In this document: piece after piece, positions 1-9,994 of the stretch
How the letters are laid out: each line of letters starts with the position of its first letter
Numbering within the stretch: the stretch's first letter is position 1
NCBI GenBank assembly: GCA_004022145.1
Contig: RCNU01000028.1
Source of the DNA: Paecilomyces variotii
Lineage: Eukaryota
Strand: one strand, 5' to 3'
Length of the DNA: 20,000 bases
Position numbers and translations under genes: made by a program
The notes under the pieces: generated by a model
What the model saw: the letters and a program-made list of their open reading frames with translations, nothing else
Told to the model about the DNA's origin: nothing
Database searches by the model: none

Positions 1-1736
1 CTCTAAAAAAAGCTTTTATTAAAGTTAAGCTATTAATTAATTATTTAAAAGTATAGAAATATTAAGCAGTATTATATATAAACCTAGAATCTTTACTATA
101 AGATATATAGAGGAATAAGTTAATAAATTAAGGTAGAATTTATATTTTTATAAGATATATTAAGAGAATAAATAAATAATAGAAAGTTTAGGCTCTAGAT
201 ATAAAAAAGACTATTAAGACTTATTAAGCTAAGTTCTTTAAAAATAAACTAAGAAGAGATCTAGATCTTAAGATTCTCTAAAGATTATTACTAAATATAG
301 TACTAATAAGAAACTTAAGAGATTAACTAGTAACTTAGCTTATTACCTTAAGTATATATATATATTCTTAAATAAAAAAGAGAATAATATTAATAATTAG
401 GAGAAGAGTTATAAAGAAGTTTTAGCTTTTCTTTAAAAGGAAAATAAAGTTTTTTATTAAAAAGAAATTAAAATATTTTATTATAATAAAATTAAGGAAT
501 AAGAGAAAATATTTAATTATTCTTACTTTAATAACTTAAATAATTATAAGAACTTATAGATAAACTCCCTATTTTAACTAAGTAAATAAGTTATATTTTA
601 TATAGAGATTCTCTAGCTAGTAAAGATCTCTTATATAGTAAAGTATAAGAGAGAGAAAGTTAAGTTACTAGATAATAAATAAAATACTAAGAAGTTATAT
701 TAAGCAATATTTATATTAAATCTCTTACCTCTAGATATTAATATAGACTAAGAGAAGTATATAGAATAAGTATTAAATACTATAATAGTAATATATATAG
801 TAAAGGAATATATTTTAATCTTAAACTTATATTATACTATAATTAATAACTTTACTTAAAGTAAATTATAGTAGAATATATTTAAAGCTAAAATAAATAT
901 ACTCTAAGTAAATAAAATTTTTAAAATAGTTATATTATTACTAAAAGCTAATATTATAATTAACTATTAAGTATTAGCTATAAAATATAACCTAGATAAT
1001 TCTCTTTAAAAGCTTAAGATATATCTTATTACTTAAGAGTTTACTTAGAAATATAGTATTAATTTTAAGTATACCTTTATTCTTATCTTATAATATAATA
1101 TACTATAAGTATTCTTAGCTATTATTATAATAGAGAATTATAAGTATTATACTATAAATATTAATAATACCTTTATAGAGTTAATATTAAAAGAGAAGAT
1201 TTATATAATACTTTTATTAAGAATAAATATACTATTAAAAATAATACTAAAAGTTTTTTAATCTCTATATAGTTTAAAATAAGCTATAAGAGATTAAAAT
1301 TAAACTTATATAAAAATACTTTAAAAAATAAGTTTTATATAAACTAATATTAATTTATACTTATTATAGCACTTAAAGAAAGAGATCTTACTCTTAATAT
1401 ATATTAATAATATCTTAATTAATATAAAATAAATAAAGAATATTTATTAATTTAAATAAGAGTTTAAATTAATATATAAAATAAAGAATCTAGAAGAAAT
1501 AAAGAAAATTCTTAGTATTTAAGTTATTTAAAATAAGAAGGATTAAATATTAATAATAGACTAATCTTATTATATTAAAGAACTCTTATTATAATATAGA
1601 ATAAGTAAGAAAAAAATATATTTAGTTAATATCTTATTAAATAAATATAACTCTTTAAAACTATTTAGTCCTTAAGATAAAAGAGTAAATTAGAGAAAGT
1701 ATTAAAGAATTATTAATAGCTTAATTTACTTAATAA

Positions 1737-2231
1737 TAGAGTAGTTATATAGGCGGTTCGGTTCGGTTCAGGGGGGGGGTTAAACCGCCCGTAGCGGTTT
1801 TCGGTTCGGGGCAGATAAACCGTACCTGAACCGAACCGTATACTAGTAGTTCGGTTTAAAACCAAAAAAACCGGATCGGCATAATTAGTTACTAACCTAA
1901 GTTAGATCCGGTTATATAACTATGCTCTAGCTATATTAGGATAAATAAGCGAAAATTACAATACCGTAATTTACCGATTTCTAATATATTTTTATTATAT
2001 ATACTAAATACTATAGTAATTTTATACCTCCGATATAAGTATCGATAAATTACATAGTGTAATTTAAATACGAGGTTAAAATTACGGTTCAAATGGTTTA
2101 AACCAAAAACTACCGGTTCGGTTCGGTTCTAGTAGACTCGCACCGCGGTTTACTAGGAAGCGAACCAAACCGAACTATGGGCGGTTCGGTTCGGTTCGGT
2201 TCGGTTTTTTCGGTTTACTATAACTACTCTA
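1737..2231. mobile_element. Non-autonomous hAT-superfamily element / MITE (495 bp)
   Basis: Perfect 13-bp TIR tagagtagttata (1737-1749) / tataactactcta (2219-2231); perfect 8-bp TSD cttaataa (1729-1736, 2232-2239); subterminal (CGGTT)n clusters at both ends. An 8-bp TSD and (C/T)AG termini are hAT hallmarks. No ORF. Confidence 0.9.
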
Positions 2232-2699
2232 CTTAATAATTTTAATAAGACTAGATATTATATTTATAATAGGTAAATTAAGTTAATATTTATTAAATCT
2301 ATTTAAAAAGTATTTTAAGATATTAAAGTCTTTTATAAAATACTTATAATTAATTATATATCTTAGTCTTAAGTTTAATATAAACTAAGACTAATAATTT
2401 ATTAAGTACTTAGACTTAGATAGGCATATACCTCGGCCTAGCTGGGGCCAAGCTTAGCCCATCCTAGGAGCTTAGCCCACCCTAGAGCTCATCCTTAGCT
2501 AGGTTGAGCTTAACCTACCTTATATATAGATTAAGTATAAGCTCAGTATAAGCCGATTATATAATTAATATAAGGTTAGCCTATTTAAGGATTAATAATA
2601 ATATTTATATAATAAAACTCTTTAGAATTTATAATATATATATATAATAGCTAATATAAAGCTAAATACTATTACTTTTTCCCTAAATACCTAAAAATA

Positions 2700-5600
2700 G
2701 CTAAAAACTAAGTAACTATAACTAATAGCTAAGTTAATAATATTTTTAATTAATAGCTACATAATATTTCTGTCTAAGTATATTAATATAATTCTTATAG
2801 AGGCCTAGCAGATACTAAATATATACTTAGTATTTATTATATTTAAACTAGATACTAACTTATTATAAAGTAAACTTATATAGAACTATAACCTTTATAA
2901 AGTATACCTAAACTAGTTTAAGAATATAATAAGTAATTAAAATAATGTCTATTCCTATATAAAAAGCGAAGATAAATAGAACTATAACCTTTATAAAGTA
3001 TACCTAAACTAGTTTAAGAATATAATAAGTAATTAAAATAATGTCTATTCCTATATAAAAAGCGAAGATAAAAAATTTAAGATATATTCTAAATTTCCTC
3101 TTTATATAAGACTTAATTAAATATATTCTTTTTATATAAGTTTTAATAAGGCATATACTAAATATATCTAAGAGGCTATTTCTCTTATAGGTATTATTAT
3201 TAGCCGCAGTAGTATCTCTAAGATTATAGTTAATAATATTTAGGATAAGTTATTTATTCTTAAATATCTAATAACTTATTTTAGTAATATCTTGCATTTT
3301 ATCTATTAAAAGAATTTTTTACCTTATAATTATTCTAGTATAAATATCTATTAAATATTTTAATAACTTTTATTAAAGGTATATCTATACCTTATCTTAA
3401 GCAGATGTTTAATATATTATAAGCATATGCTAAATATAGCTTAGATTTAGTTTGGGCTCTATACTTAAGGTAATTATAAAACCCTATCTCTCCTACTTCT
3501 TTAAAAGGATAAAAAAGATAAAATTTAAAGCAAGACATACTATTAGGCATATAAATACAGCAGTATTAAATATTATAAGTATATGCTAGAGTATATATTT
3601 AAACAATGCTATAAATATAGCTATATTAAACTAAATATCTTTAAAACGCTTTATAAAGAAGCAGGCTATACATTTGATATTATTTCTGCTAGTAAATTTC
3701 TTAAAAGAAAAACTGAAAATTAGTATAATAAATTTCTTTATTTTTAGAATTAATAATTAGCAGGGCATTATTTTTATCCAGAAAGTAAAATATAAATATG
3801 CTTAAATTAAACTCCGGTAATCTTTAAACAGTATAAAGTAAGTTTAACTCTATATTTGATTTTAGCATATGCTAAATATATTCTTAGCTACCAGTTACCT
3901 TTATCGGTTGCCTATTAATAAGTGATTTTAAACTATAGTATATTGTATAAGCTATCTCTATATATATAGCTCAAATTTATATGCCTTATCTATATACCTT
4001 AGTAGCTTATAGGATATATAATACTAATACTCCTATTTAATCTATTTATACCTATATTAACTATATTATTTTAAGGCGTATAACTTATAGTAGGTATTTG
4101 CTCTATATATACTAGGCATATACTAACTATAGGTCTAGGATTTAACCACTCTTAAGGTATATCTAAAGTCCTATATAAAGAATATAATGCTTTAATTAAT
4201 ATTTTTATTCCTTATAATTAAGATTATTTTCCTTTTATCCTTCTTATTTATTAAGAAGATTATATATATTTTCCTCTATTACTAACTAAGTTAAGTTAAG
4301 ATTTTGCTTAAGAACTTATAGATCTAATTAACTAAAGAGATATTCTTACTATAATTATGCGTATATTATATATACCTTAAGCCTGCATTCTGCATATGCT
4401 AACCAGATACTTATAGATAAATTCTTAATATCTCCCGAAGTATATACATTTAAATAAAAGTATTAAAATTAAGCTCTAAATTTAATTAGAGCTTCTTTAA
4501 ATATTAAGGATAAAATTGCTTATTTAATTTAAAAATAAAAACTTCTATAATACCTATTTAGTTCAGATATTGCTAGTTAGAATCTATTCTTACTATATGT
4601 TTTATATATATTAATATTATATAGAGGTTATACAAGAGTATAAGTTTAATCAACACAGAGAAAATAATAAATAATAGATTTGCGCAGTTAATATTAGTAA
4701 AACTAGAGAATATATTATTATTTATTATATAAATGCTTAAGTAAAAGCATTTATAAAAGCTAAATATCTTAAAATAGATTTAGCTTATAAGATAATACTT
4801 AAAAATATAAATGTCTTTTTAATCTTAAGCTAGAATTCTAAAGCTAGATATATATTTAACTTCTCCTTATTATATGTTTAGCATATACTGACTTTATATT
4901 AGGGATTAATACTTATTGCTATACTTTTATCTCTCTATAAACTTATTATATATATTTTTAAATATTTAAATTACTATTTTAAATATTATTATAAGCTGCA
5001 TATTAATATATTTAATAGGCATATATTTTAAATAAAGAAGGGATATAGACTGTTACTATAAATATATATAAGAAATAAGTACTTAGTTAGTATTATCTTA
5101 ATAAATACAGAGTATATGCTAAATATATTTAGGCTTTAATAACTACTTATATTCTATTTATCCTTCCCTTAACTGGTAAGAATATTTTAAGTATATACTT
5201 ATCTTCTGCCAAATATATATTAAACACAATTTCTATAAGAAGTTTAAAAGATCTTATCCCTTTATCTATTAACTAAAATATCTATAGGATCTATATTCTT
5301 ACTAAGAAATCCTTTAAACTATATACTAATAGGGTGAGGAATATCTAAATATTAAAAAATAGCTTTAAAGTAAAATAAAACTATAGATTCTTACTGTATT
5401 ATTATAGGAAACATTAAAAATCTCTTTTAAATAATAGAGTTATACTTAAAAGTATATTAGATTATCTGAAAGTAGTTACTTCTAAGATAATTATAATATA
5501 GGGAGAAACCTATCTTTACTGGGGGCTATTTAACGGTACATCTATACTTAGCATATACTTAATATCTATCTAGCATAGATTAAATACTAATAAGGCTAAT

Positions 5601-6475
5601 TTATATTTAGTCTACAATAATATATAGAAGATATTACTAAATAACAAGAGCTTTTTAACTATAATATTAATAATATATAGCAAAACTATAGTAATATTAT
5701 GCGGATCTCCTAATAGATACAAAAAAACAATAAGATAAAAGTTTAATATGCCTTTAAATATATGCTGAACATATCTTTTAGACTAATAGAATTAAAGAGC
5801 TATTAATTATTAAATGAATCAATCTTATTTACTATTTAATCTTAATAATTCCTATAATATACCTTTAGATAATAGTAATAATCGATCTTCTGATAAAAAT
5901 GCTAATTTTAAGGTTATTTTAATATCTTTATCTAAACCTTCTGCTAAACATATACTAGCTAAAGATAAAATATCTATAGAGCATATACTAAGCAGAGGTT
6001 GAAGAAGGGGTTAACCTAGAGGTTCTGGTCATTGTCAGAGCTAAGTTTAATCTAGGACTAAGTAGACTAAGCTAAGCTCTGAAGAATTAGACTCAGATTA
6101 TATTTCTCAACGCAGATTAAGTGAAGAGCATATACTAAACAGAGGTTAAAAAAGGGGTAGATCTAGAGGTTCTAGTTATATTTAAGGCTAGGTTCGATTT
6201 AATACTATCCTAATACCTAGAAGGGTTTAAACCTCTTTATTAAATTTAGATAGCTCTGCTAGTTCTAATCTAAAGTATATATTAACTCTATATCCGGCAT
6301 ATATTATCTAGGAGTTAAGTATAGATTCTAGATAGAATAGAGCTTATATACGCTATAGCAGAGGACCCTTATTAGAAGAAATAGCAGAGACTAATTTTGC
6401 TATTTAATTAAGAGAAATAATAGAATAAAGGCAATAAGAATTTAAGTAAGAAAGAGAAGGATTATTACAGTAGTT
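2700..6475 (+). pseudogene. Intron-rich MULE-type DDE transposase, destroyed by RIP (start approximate)
   Basis: Inferred motifs: 'YLEMDLAYKM' (D at 4777-4779); 'GIRTVTMDMCKKQAPG' (D codon 5061-5063, now aat); 'HILIFCQxH' (C at 5207-5209); 'LSESSHF' (E at 5468-5470). This is the D..D..CxxH..E order of Mutator transposases. Splicing gttagt..ag (5086-5132) keeps the frame; another intron at 3838-3887. The C-terminus has an RGRPRG-like basic repeat (5991-6030) and an E/Q/R-rich tail. Confidence 0.75.
2880..3072 (+). repeat. Perfect 96-bp tandem duplication inside the MULE
   Basis: 2881-2976 is identical to 2977-3072 (tagaactataacc...aagcgaagataaa). Confidence 0.95.
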
Positions 6476-6599
6476 TATATAATAAATATATATATCTATA
6501 TAGCTATAGTTATATAGTAAATATATATATATATTTCCTTTTCCCCTATAATAAGAATAAATAAAAAATAAAGAATATTGTATTATAATTATTTAAAGA

Positions 6600-8400
6600 T
6601 ACAGAAAAACAGTCTTTAAGTATAAGAACTTAGCATTGAACTGAAGTTCGGTATTAACAATCTTTAAGTATAAGAGCTTAGTATTAAACTAAAGTTCAGC
6701 ATCGAGCATATGCTCGGGGGAGAGCTAGGCTTAAATATTTATATATTTAAGGCCTCTGAAAACTTATCCTTAGAAGAGGAGATTATAACTTATAGATATA
6801 AACTCAGCATATACTCTGCGTATAAAAGAGAAGAACTTATTAATAAACTTAGCACTGCAGCTATTAATACTATAAGGATATCTATAGCTACAATTATAAG
6901 CACAATTATACTTTAATTTAGTTGGTATTTCTTTATCGGCAGTATATCTACTTATATATTTATTATAAGATATAAACCATCCGCGCTTTAATAGAGTTAA
7001 GGCAAGACCTATATTATAACCTAGTTCAGCATATGCGCAAGATAAATTAGAAGGCTACTTACTATTATTTCTATCATTATTATCTTGCGGCAATAGGATA
7101 TTTCTAGTCTATATAAGGTTAGTATATATATAACGCAGGCAGGGGTATATTTACTGTGCGCTTATAAGATAAGGTTAATAAAGATATAGGATGCTAGAAC
7201 AAAGGCCAAGATTAGTTAAAGTTAATATTGGGCATATGCTGAATATATCTAAAAAGCCTGCTGAGAGTTATAAGTTATATATAAATAGTAATATAAATGG
7301 CAATATAAATGGCAAAGAAGATAGTATATAGATCCTATTTATATATTAGCATATGCTAAACTTATTCTCCGATAAAACTAGCTTTTATAGCTGTTTCTGA
7401 ACTCATTATTAGTGCAAGCTACTTTTTTACAGGATGTAGCAATACTCTTAATTAGCATGCTTCCTATATTAGAAGAAATATTAGCTTAATATAAGCTCTA
7501 TATATGCCTAAGACTTACTATAGTTTATAAATAAAGTCGGCGTCTTGCTATTTGCTAAGTAAAACATATTTAATTAGTATACTGTATATTATTAGCATAG
7601 CTCTAGTATATATAGAACAGATCCTAAACTTACTATAGCCTAATTATCTTCTTATCTATAATTATATTATTAGTCTCTATATTGCGGTTTAATGCTACAG
7701 CAGATTAGTATATATTTAATATATATTAAGGATAATAACATACTCGCCCCTAAGTATATAGTCCTTATATAGTGTTGTAACTTTAACTGTCAGCATATTA
7801 TATATATATAGAACTTATATTAGACTTACAGCAGGCTATAAATTAATAATCTTACTATATATAAGCAGGCTATCTGCGTTTACTTATACTCAGCAACTAT
7901 AGAAGCTCAGTATATGCTTGGTTAATTTTAAAGAAAGGACTTATATATTCCTGTTTATGCTTAAGATAAAAGACCTAAGGATCAGCATGCGGGCATTTTC
8001 CTCAGCGGTAATTGCAGGCACTATCTATATTTAGTATGCTTTCAGCATATGTGCAATATCTGCTTACTAGATTTCTTATTTTCCTGCTTAGCTGTAGTGT
8101 GCGAGTCTAGGATCTATATTAGATTTAGGTTAAGAACTGGGCCTATTTTTATTTAGCATATGCTTAATATTAAGCAGAGATGTACTTACTATAATAATAC
8201 CTGTAGTTTGTTGGATTACCTGCTAATAAAACTACATTGCAGGTAAGGAGTTCCTTTAAATATAGCAGTATTTTTGTGGTTGTACAGCAGTAATATAAGA
8301 GGGTGGACTGTAATACTATAGAGGCAGAGTGAAGGTGTTATTAGGGAGGTTGAAGATAATATAAATAATGTGAACTTCTATGCGATAGGATTCTAACGTC
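6600..8400 (-). pseudogene. Second, convergent, multi-intron gene of the MULE; product unrecognised (ends approximate)
   Basis: Run of ~47-55-bp minus-strand introns with GTAAG(T/C) donors (seen on + as acttac/gcttac) and YAG acceptors: 8143-8189, 8021-8067, 7897-7944 (donor RIP-hit), 7781-7829, 7582-7633, 7464-7518, 7009-7062. Short exons read e.g. 'IDPRLAHYS' and 'PAITAEENARMLIL'. Confidence 0.6.
6613..6705. repeat. Imperfect 48-bp tandem duplication
   Basis: tctttaagtataagaacttagcattgaactgaagttcgg (6613) versus tctttaagtataagagcttagtattaaactaaagttcag (6661); the differences are transitions. Confidence 0.85.
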
Positions 8401-9271
8401 GCTTCAGCATATGCTTAATAACCGCCTTTACATATACCGCCTTAGTAAACTGCGCAGAATAATATCAGTTTTAGCTCCCTATATATATCCCAGCGTTGCT
8501 CTGACCTATGCTTAGCATATGCTGCAATACGGCACAGAGCATATGCTATATACAGTTCCTGACAAATATAGTTTATTGCAATATAATATGAAAACTTTAT
8601 TATGAGTTATATAAGCTATATATATGCTAAGCCCACCCAAACGCTATACTGAAACTAACTTAGTATCTGAGCTAAACCTAGATTTTTCTTAGGTGGGCTG
8701 AGCTTTTCAAGTAGGCTAAGCTTAGCCCCGGCTGGGCCGAGCTATATCCCGGACTTAGATTATATAATAGATAAGATTAATTAGATATTAATCTTAGAGA
8801 ATATTTTTACTTTAACTAAAAGCTTAATAAGCTAATTAAATAAAAAATAAAAGTTTATTATAATTTTAACTATAAAGGCTAAATATATAGCTATATATTA
8901 AGCTATAAAGTAGTCTTAATAATTAGCCCTTCTTTTAAGAGATATAAGATATAAATACTATATTAGTCTAAATAAATTTAAGCTAATAATAAGAGAAAAA
9001 TAAGCTTTTATTATTAATTCTCTAGTTAAAATCTATAGAGATAACTAAGTATTATTATTACTAATTAAAGATACCTATATTTATAAAAGGTTAAAGTATA
9101 TTAATATTATATATTACTATATATATAACTTATATTAAAAGAATAAAATTAATATTAAGTTTATTAGAATATAGAATATAATAGTAAATAATTTTACTAA
9201 ACTACTATTAAAAACAGACTTCTTAAAATTTTTAAGTTAACTAAGATTAACTAACTTAATAAGTATAAATT

Positions 9272-9600
9272 AAGGAGAAGTATTATAAAATAGTAATTAA
9301 GACTAATAAATTCTAATATAATAAAGATTTTATTTTAAGAAAATCTTTAAGAATAATTTTACTTTAATAAAATTAAGCAGCTTTAAAAAACTATTTCTTA
9401 AGCTTTATTTAAAATCTATTGCCCTAACTAAGAATATATAAATATACTTAATATCTACTATATGTGCTAATACTTTTTCTCCCTAATTATTATTAGCCCT
9501 TTAAGTTAATTAAATAGTCTAGGGAATTTTATTTAAATCTATTCTTTTTAACTTTTTTTAATTAAAAAGATTAAGTTAAAGTTTTAATTATAAAATAATA
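9272..9600 (+). repeat. Polypurine tract and start of the 3' LTR of copia copy A (right end not determined)
   Basis: aaggagaag (9272-9280) follows the pol end and is immediately followed by tattata (RIP-mutated TGTT...) at 9281. The end coordinate is a guess. Confidence 0.45.
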
Positions 9601-9667
9601 TTATTATTAATAATATTAAATAATTAAAATTATTAGTAAAATAAAGTATTATTTAAAGAGACTATAT

Positions 9668-9994
9668 TATTATACTTCTTATAGAGATAATAATAGTTAA
9701 AAAGAATAGAGAATAAAATAACTTTTTATACTAGCTTTAAAAGAAAGTATAACTTAAAATAAGAATAAAGTATAAGAAATAGAACTAATACTAATATATC
9801 TTTATAATATAATTAGTTAATTATATTAAGTTAGTTAAGTTCTTCTCTTAAGCTAATATACTTACTATAAGAATTCTTCTATTAAGCTAACTATTTTCTA
9901 TAACTATATATATAATTATTTTAGACTTTTTTATAAGAGAACTTCTTATATATTCTCTTTATAAACTGCTAGTTTTAACTGCTATATTATAATA
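9668..9994 (-). repeat. Putative 3' LTR of copia copy B (~327 bp)
   Basis: On the minus strand it begins tattata directly after the PPT and ends tataata at 9668 (RIP-mutated TG...CA inverted ends). The far end is inferred from that short inverted repeat only. Confidence 0.5.

Follow-up and report, generated by a model that had tools for sequence, protein, structure and literature searches.

Second open reading frames (ORFs) have several precedents in the Mutator superfamily of transposons, and those named in the part of the literature available for this comparison are mudrB in MuDR, mutB in Mutyl, and vanB together with vanC in VANDAL elements (PMC6446971). In the same partial text, members of the ascomycete Hop subgroup of Mutator-like elements (MULEs) are given "1 or 2" ORFs and terminal inverted repeats (TIRs) of 85 to 99 bp, and the superfamily as a whole is assigned a target-site duplication of 8 to 11 bp (PMC6446971). 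Mutyl is described with the two genes mutA and mutB in the excerpted report on that element (PMC9865632). Here we analyze a window of 20,000 nucleotides from Paecilomyces variotii (the whole stretch of DNA considered, from contig RCNU01000028.1), which contains a 6,330-bp transposon that has been heavily altered by repeat-induced point mutation (RIP). We place it somewhat above an even chance that the region from 6600 to 8400 represents a RIP-killed second unit of this 6.33-kb Mutator-like TIR transposon, which is rich in introns, lies on the minus strand, and converges on a plus-strand unit in the left half. To our knowledge, the accessory genes of MULEs are few and poorly understood, and mutB is the only one that we know to have been named in fungi.

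MuDR from maize resembles the window element in having TIRs and a 9-bp duplication, and its two genes would have counterparts in the two putative units of the window element; the second MuDR product is assigned no catalytic role in the available part of the source (PMC6446971). The window element differs in that it is fungal, far more intron-dense, equipped with a palindrome in its introns, and dead through RIP, and no homology to MURA or MURB emerged. The mudrA and mudrB genes of MuDR are convergent and are read inward from both ends. Mutyl from Yarrowia lipolytica and the two-ORF Hop MULEs are likewise fungal and combine a second ORF with a 9- to 10-bp duplication and TIRs of 22 to 99 bp (PMC6446971, PMC9865632), but no intron-borne motif array is seen in the accessible portions of these sources, and the likeness to the window element is one of layout. 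A further system of interest is VANDAL21 of Arabidopsis, whose VANC21 protein binds the motif YAGTATTAY in introns and in intergenic and terminal noncoding parts of the element; as described in the available text, these targets share one orientation, reach a high density, and often form tandem repeats (PMC5735166).

Element boundaries and intron-like units

The ends of the element were defined by comparison with an uninterrupted inverted copy of its flank. The 9-bp sequence GACTTAGAT is present once, in RIPed form, in that copy near 10520 and twice around the element, and contigs from sequencing runs X19 and X5 link position 2412 straight to 8752 with 6 to 9 letters in common. The two termini yield a 68-nt inverted match when they are aligned in purine/pyrimidine space, which was used because RIP transitions are invisible there. 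With a 9-bp duplication and long TIRs of about 68 nt, the element fits the Mutator superfamily by structure alone. A transposase domain was not detected by searching six stop-masked frames against Pfam (no families at E ≤ 1 or at E ≤ 10), although RIP and frequent introns could mask one. A sequence-only reading of the window had named the left gene as the transposase, and this assignment gained nothing from the domain search even at the permissive threshold. The window copy itself is dead, having been killed by RIP.

Intron-like units were sought with a strict model that demands GT[AG]NG[TCA], then CT[AG]A[CTA] located 2 to 18 nt before YAG, and a total length of 36 to 85 nt. On the minus strand of 6600-8400 this model returned six units, and on the plus strand none. 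Elsewhere, the left flank gave none on either strand, and the right flank gave none on the plus strand and one on the minus strand. Under a first-order Markov null, the minus strand of 6600-8400 would have 1.14 units on average, and six or more arise with P = 0.001. Likewise, GTAAGT occurs five times on this strand where 0.575 occurrences are expected, a count that is reached in none of 2,000 simulations.

Altogether, 12 minus-strand units of 42 to 55 nt were drawn, and they carry the signals of spliceosomal introns, namely a GT donor, a branch box, a YAG acceptor, and a length typical of fungi. Ten of the 12 begin with GT; the AT start of the remaining two agrees with a G>A change by RIP. Seven of the units (i1 through i7, Table 1) are 43 to 55 nt long and follow one another with donor-to-donor distances of 86 to 123 nt (mean 112, SD 14); five of these seven pass the strict model. 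In i4, the CTGAC box is overlapped by the CAG acceptor. The claim in the sequence-only reading of at least seven regularly spaced minus-strand introns of about 50 bp is therefore borne out at the level of intron-like units, and the short exons postulated between them are found as intervals of 75, 80, 67, 43, 61, and 63 nt. Two possible upstream units (8553-8506 and 8437-8393) have GTATAT donors.

We considered whether the regular spacing might be that of a decayed tandem repeat and rejected this explanation, as neither Tandem Repeats Finder (TRF) nor a self-comparison in purine/pyrimidine space reveals a period of about 115 nt. The only repeats to appear in the self-comparison are three local direct repeats and the TIRs. 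Beyond a shared box of 10 to 16 nt and the splice signals, the units exhibit no extended similarity in purine/pyrimidine space, and no terminal repeats or duplications belonging to individual units were found.

A palindrome shared by the units

The shared box contains a 10-bp palindrome, AGCATATGCT. When one mismatch is permitted, this motif has 19 matches against 0.69 expected, a number that none of 200 shuffles reaches, and all 19 of the matches reside within 3422-8547 and hence only in the element. The motif array pointed out by the sequence-only reading is thereby confirmed. Its 8-nt core has 23 copies if one RIP-type change is allowed, and a core with one such change (GCATATAC) is located at the left terminus, where it spans 2424-2431 and occupies positions 3 through 10 of the element end. 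The differences in the mismatched copies are C>T or G>A changes, the kind that RIP would produce. In the least mutated stretch, 8400-8560, where CpG is retained, all three motif copies are perfect, which indicates that the box is ancestral and was not made by RIP.

The position of the motif within the units is also consistent. Eight of the 11 motif cores in the right half reside within units that have both donor and acceptor; on the minus strand, the donor is 15 to 31 nt upstream and a YAG is 8 to 20 nt downstream. The core continues directly into T[AG]A to give GCTRA(Y), a branch-site-like box that we take to match the branch consensus of filamentous fungi. This consensus accounts for the GCT of the palindrome only. 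The remaining seven bases make the 10-bp palindrome perfect, an outcome that is unlikely to have arisen by accident and suggests that the box may be bound by a dimer. Copies are spaced by about 24 to 450 nt, with approximately one per intron, and they are not tandem. A role for the palindrome as an RNA hairpin was rejected on the basis that eight units fold no better than shuffled sequences (z of −1.35 to +0.83).

The side of the TRA box was scored for each copy. Of the 11 left-half copies, 9 have the box after the core on the plus strand and 3 on the minus strand; for the 11 right-half copies, the plus-strand and minus-strand counts are 2 and 8. Among copies with a TRA box on a single side, the plus-to-minus ratio is 7:1 on the left and 1:7 on the right (Fisher p = 0.010). 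Both the intron-like signals and the TRA side of the motif change strand near 6500. The flip in donors and TRA boxes supports two putative convergent transcription units that would meet at the TA-rich spacer at about 6450-6600, and to this extent the convergent layout proposed by the sequence-only reading holds, although no intron-sized RNA joint adds to it.

From these features we propose how intact copies might work. Each unit would be an intron of 42 to 55 nt in which a GTAAGT-type donor precedes AGCATATGCT, a TRA(Y) box resembling a branch site joins directly onto the palindrome, and YAG serves as acceptor. Splicing of the minus-strand transcript would then produce an mRNA for an accessory protein of perhaps 250 to 330 residues, in a position equivalent to that of mudrB in MuDR or mutB in Mutyl, and the palindrome would be a cis signal common to the introns of the two genes. 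Such a second accessory gene is plausible, and there is precedent for one in fungal Mutator-like elements. Because the side of the branch box follows the direction of transcription, the palindrome would act first in how transcripts of the element are spliced or expressed. The perfect 10-bp palindrome and the copy at the left terminus make a second role likely, as the binding site of a dimeric element protein, for which the transposase is the simplest candidate. Judged by the core at the left terminus, the transposase is at least as good a candidate binder as an accessory protein. The abstract of a 2026 preprint reports that a Mutator transposase can itself be a sequence-specific activator of cognate copies, and so the transposase stays a candidate reader of such motifs.

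An extended version of this proposal is that the element has a private intron code. In this version, 25 to 30 introns in both genes would each carry the palindrome at the branch site, with a further copy at the terminus, and a dimeric element protein (the transposase or the second product) would read the box on DNA or pre-mRNA and thereby couple splicing or expression to transposition or to protection from silencing. We judge this version distinctly unlikely. A family with two unusually intron-dense genes, each of whose introns has the palindrome at its branch site, would be marking its transcripts or DNA in a manner new for transposons. The value of the dead copy in the window is that of a pointer to a family, not of a demonstrated mechanism.

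Dispersed motifs of this general kind are familiar from other transposons. Ac, En/Spm (with its TnpA sites), and the P element possess subterminal or internal transposase-binding repeats comprising many copies of a short motif, and these copies are grouped in the few hundred bases nearest the ends. The window element is similar in having many internal copies of a short motif and one terminal copy, but its motif runs through the whole element and is carried inside introns.

Two further observations concern the 10-mer itself. Metagenome contigs L005 (1250-2229) and L018 (400-960) hold 13 to 14 copies of the same 10-mer in tandem minisatellites of about 45 to 60 bp that are unrelated to the fungal element, and thus the 10-mer recurs in other repeat families. 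In addition, contigs from other copies of the element join 3136/3145 to 5113 and 5571 to 8526, with end points within about 15 nt of motif copies. These joints may be internal deletions formed at the motif or may be alignment artefacts from short matches; their matching sides are short (22 nt where given), one carries an undefined intervening stretch, and they were set aside on these grounds. The 10-mer occurs in 65 papers, and in the 20 listed of these it appears only in primers and at unrelated sites.

Coding signal, relatives, and competing explanations

Coding signal in the minus-strand unit was assessed by purine periodicity (R1-R3, the purine content at codon position 1 minus that at position 3), a measure that is invariant under RIP. 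The longest stop-free frame in the element comprises 94 codons and is situated on the minus strand at 7054-6773. When the units 7154-7109, 7062-7021, and 6840-6789 are removed from 7193-6741, the resulting 104 codons contain no stop, compared with 8 and 24 in the two alternative phases, and the spliced sequence has a periodicity of 0.212. Random pseudo-splicing of the same region yields zero stops with P = 0.009 and equals the periodicity with P = 0.015, and none of 5,000 samples of flank DNA attains that periodicity. Random 265-nt stretches of the element have an open frame in 34 of 20,000 cases, most or all of which we estimate to come from this same region.

The stretch with the short exons gives a different picture, and several results obtained there and elsewhere weigh against a second protein gene. 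After removal of i1 through i7 from 8237-7519, which begins at a candidate ATG, the two poorer phases contain 20 and 14 stops and the best still contains 9 over 145 codons, a result that random pseudo-splicing equals in 73% of trials. The periodicity of this stretch is 0.097 (P = 0.18 with pseudo-splicing as the null, 0.32 with flank DNA). In the left half of the element, the strict intron model also finds two units per strand, and the right-half motif copies at 7349, 7232, and 6706 have no recognizable donor. Furthermore, an 80-codon frame on the plus strand at 6674-6916 is in the codon-aligned antisense phase; because purine periodicity is strand-symmetric, the strand of the coding-like part is indicated by the intron signals alone. 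Identity searches belong to the same side of the balance. No Pfam family matched in six stop-masked frames at E ≤ 10, a test that RIP limits, and phmmer found no hit for the 94-codon frame among 1.84 billion representatives at E ≤ 0.001, a search that RIP weakens. The highest score from the ESM Atlas was 0.82, at low recognition, and the neighbors were uninformative. Finally, no intron-sized RNA joint was present among the 10 listed, in libraries that may hold DNA and for copies that, being RIPed, may go unspliced, and contigs from the RNA libraries span three predicted introns unspliced (for example, the X20 pieces 6769-7071 and 7513-7671).

No 90-nt segment of the micro-exon stretch has a periodicity of 0.25 or more. 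An apparent coherence of frame among exons B, C, E, and F, judged by purine periodicity, was set aside as a post hoc choice, since agreement at adjacent junctions (2 of 6) is that of chance. RIP can make stops out of Gln, Arg (CGA), or Trp codons. Therefore, the stop count in the micro-exon stretch does not refute coding, yet it gives no support. A continuous spliced frame, which the sequence-only reading expected of un-RIPed copies, is seen on removal of predicted introns in 7193-6741 and does not emerge from 8237-7519, where the proposed exons perform no better than pseudo-spliced controls. Only the 3′ third of the second unit looks coding.

Relatives were sought in several collections. A degenerate TIR pattern had no match in JGI metagenome contigs. 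A pattern requiring two motifs matched at least 113 loci there, and eight of the listed loci had more than one match; the two of these eight that were inspected, L005 and L018, were rejected as relatives because their matches are the minisatellites described above, in DNA that does not look fungal. Comparison of the element with the 113 listed loci by blastn gave AT-rich matches only: the longer ones show 58 to 62% identity, and a handful spanning just 48-94 nt show 70 to 83%. An un-RIPed relative was thus not found in JGI metagenome contigs with either the TIR pattern or the two-motif pattern. No paper describing the element was found in a literature search that covered main texts.

Parts of the element are present in 20 sequencing runs from eight studies. 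Four runs of one organism contain 0.59 to 0.81 of the sampled words, and several metagenomes from food fermentation and grain contain about 0.3. In run X1, 2,596 contigs match at 90% or more, and the differences are transitions at 490 of 491 variable places. This pattern indicates that the family is multicopy and that RIP-type changes account for nearly all differences among its members, and a RIP-corrected consensus of the family is feasible. Two metatranscriptome runs contain 0.11 to 0.17 of the sampled words in contigs that are colinear with the DNA, and their cover is low over parts of the right half. The splicing anticipated by the sequence-only reading does not appear in these RNA libraries, whose contigs pass through predicted introns; given that the libraries may hold DNA and that the copies are RIPed, the contigs neither show transcription nor exclude splicing of intact copies.

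The contrary results would be expected if there were no second protein gene at all. The units would then be noncoding cis modules, such as transposase-binding sites or regulatory repeats, or the introns of a noncoding transcript, and the frame at 7054-6773 would be due to chance or would be an antisense shadow. This account is consistent with a micro-exon stretch whose coding signal does not exceed controls, with the failure of Pfam and phmmer to return a family or homologue, with the lack of intron-sized joints among the 10 listed, with the motif core at the left terminus, and with the antisense-aligned 80-codon frame on the plus strand. We nevertheless consider it unlikely. The units combine donor, branch box, and acceptor in the right order, on a single strand, and at fungal intron lengths; the lack of extended similarity outside the box of 10 to 16 nt argues that the units are not copies of one repeat; and 7193-6741 is open and periodic beyond both the pseudo-splicing and the flank nulls.

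A related possibility accepts the introns but gives the palindrome no function. Introner-like elements of fungi are known as many introns with a common sequence, and an introner-like unit might have multiplied inside the element, such that the box would mark common descent. Some 25 to 30 intron-like units share one box within 6.3 kb, across two genes on opposite strands, and an exon-plus-intron module is visibly duplicated at 5965-6208, both in keeping with this scenario. However, similarity among the units stops at the box and the splice signals even in purine/pyrimidine space, the box is perfect while the rest has diverged, which suggests selection on the box, and the units lack terminal repeats or duplications of their own. 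Also, in comparison with introner-like elements, the common part is just 10 to 16 nt, and a single transposon is the only place where the units are known. We regard common descent of this kind as improbable.

The sequence-only reading had suggested yet another function, in which the minus-strand gene would encode a VANC-like, sequence-specific anti-silencing protein with the AGCATATGCT array as its target. In agreement with this idea, the motif is limited to the element (19 of 19 matches) and occurs in introns and in the subterminal region, where VANC21 localizes on VANDAL21 according to the available part of the report (PMC5735166). VANDAL21 and the window element thus share a short motif restricted to one family and carried in introns and in intergenic and terminal noncoding parts. 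The arrangement is otherwise dissimilar, because the VANC21 motif, as described there, is asymmetric, uniformly oriented, and dense, whereas the window motif is a 10-bp palindrome present about once per intron and fused to a branch-like box; noncoding placement is common to both, and dense tandem or same-orientation arrays are not seen in the window element. The side of the branch box tracks transcription, and the left-terminal copy would suit binding by the transposase. Neither six-frame Pfam searches nor phmmer of the 94-codon frame returned similarity to any family or detected a VANC-like protein, in tests that RIP limits, and nothing connects the predicted product with VANC or with DNA binding. 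The family has also been inactivated by RIP, which is mutational and is not reversed by anti-silencing of the demethylation type. An anti-silencing factor of the VANC type gains no direct support from these results, and we rate it as very improbable.

Least probable of all, in our estimation, is capture of a host gene fragment as the right-hand unit in the manner of a Pack-MULE: Mutator-like elements do capture host sequence, as noted in the available text (PMC6446971), and the product matches no transposon family, but no host homologue was found among 1.84 billion representatives in a search that RIP weakens, and the intron-like units share their palindrome with the left unit and the subterminal region, a distribution of one motif across the introns of both units that argues against a freshly captured gene.

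Feature coordinates and genomic setting

The features on which the favored reading of a second, minus-strand, intron-rich unit is built are listed together with neighboring repeats in Table 1.

Table 1. Features of the element in window coordinates
Feature	Coordinates	Strand	Basis or remark
TIR transposon, Mutator-like by structure, heavily RIP-mutated	2422-8751		aligned ends, target duplication, contig joints
Left copy of 9-bp target-site duplication, GACTTAGAT	2413-2421		comparison with uninterrupted inverted flank copy
Right copy of 9-bp target-site duplication	8752-8760		same comparison and contig joints
Left TIR	2422-2489	+	inverted-repeat alignment, purine/pyrimidine-space match
Right TIR	8684-8751	−	inverted-repeat alignment, purine/pyrimidine-space match
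Left intron-bearing unit, presumed transposase gene	3100-6420	+	TRA-box side, intron-like units
Canonical intron-like units of left unit	3838-3887, 4090-4132	+	strict model
147-nt repeated module, left unit	5965-6208	+	self-comparison
TA-rich spacer between converging units	6476-6534		TRF, period 2
48-nt tandem duplication, 3′ end of minus-strand unit	6602-6713		self-comparison
Coding-like 3′ part of minus-strand unit	6741-7193	−	open frame, purine periodicity
Intron-like unit i13	6789-6840	−	ATAAGT donor, motif GTATATGC, TAAG acceptor
Intron-like unit i11	7021-7062	−	GTAAGT donor, perfect motif core, CTAG acceptor
Intron-like unit i10	7109-7154	−	GTAAAT donor, ACTAAC box
Intron-like unit i7	7464-7518	−	55 nt
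Intron-like unit i6	7582-7633	−	52 nt
Intron-like unit i5	7695-7743	−	49 nt, GTATGT donor
Intron-like unit i4	7787-7829	−	43 nt, GTAAGT donor, GCTGACAG at its end
Intron-like unit i3	7897-7944	−	48 nt, ATAAGT donor (RIP-type G>A change)
Intron-like unit i2	8025-8067	−	43 nt, GTAAGC donor
Intron-like unit i1	8143-8189	−	47 nt, GTAAGT donor, perfect motif
Candidate start codon (weak)	8235-8237	−	in phase with lowest-stop splicing path
Least-mutated subterminal region, three perfect motif copies	8393-8553	−	drawable as two further units
Dispersed palindrome array AGCATATGCT, 8 perfect and 11 one-mismatch copies	3422-8547		motif count versus shuffles

The repeated module near the 3′ end of the left unit (5965-6208) consists of 147 nt present twice at 77% identity. 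Each copy begins with a copy of the motif, which is followed by a basic Arg/Gly-rich stretch that presumably resembles an AT-hook.

The element is embedded in an AT-rich block that covers positions 1 to 12270 of the window (GC of 0.13-0.31) and is followed by a ribosomal DNA (rDNA) unit comprising a spacer, 18S (15363-17162), 5.8S (17348-17501), and 28S from 17675. The AT-rich block displays the dinucleotide signature of RIP, with TpA/ApT of 1.3 to 1.4 and a (CpA+TpG)/(ApC+GpT) ratio that is 0.10 for the flank and, within the element, 0.52 for the left half and 0.94 for 6600-8400; the corresponding values for the rDNA are 0.89 and 1.03. For the element itself, GC is 0.22 to 0.30, TpA/ApT is 1.32 to 1.33, and (CpA+TpG)/(ApC+GpT) is 0.52 to 0.94. 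Between 12270 and 15360, the RIPed block directly adjoins the GC-rich rDNA spacer, which contains many subrepeats with the palindrome GGTCACGTGACC, and the junction in this interval may be an edge of the rDNA array.

The flanks of the element (256-2421 and 8755-9316) belong to another RIPed repeat, which is present as a large inverted duplication, and together they make up one of its arms. The second arm (9959-12235) is uninterrupted and thus provides the empty site for the insertion. Within the left flank, a non-RIPed insert of about 490 bp (1737-2231) resembles a miniature inverted-repeat transposable element (MITE); its 13-nt terminal inverted repeats (TAGAGTAGTTATA) are perfect, and GGTTCGGTTCGG is repeated many times within it. 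The end sequence of this insert is also found as a loose end at 6327 in one RNA-library contig, which indicates that another copy of the large element has the insert at a different place. Finally, a 96-bp tandem duplication at 2880-3072, 100% identical according to TRF, is located within heavily RIPed DNA and probably either postdates RIP or is too short for renewed mutation.

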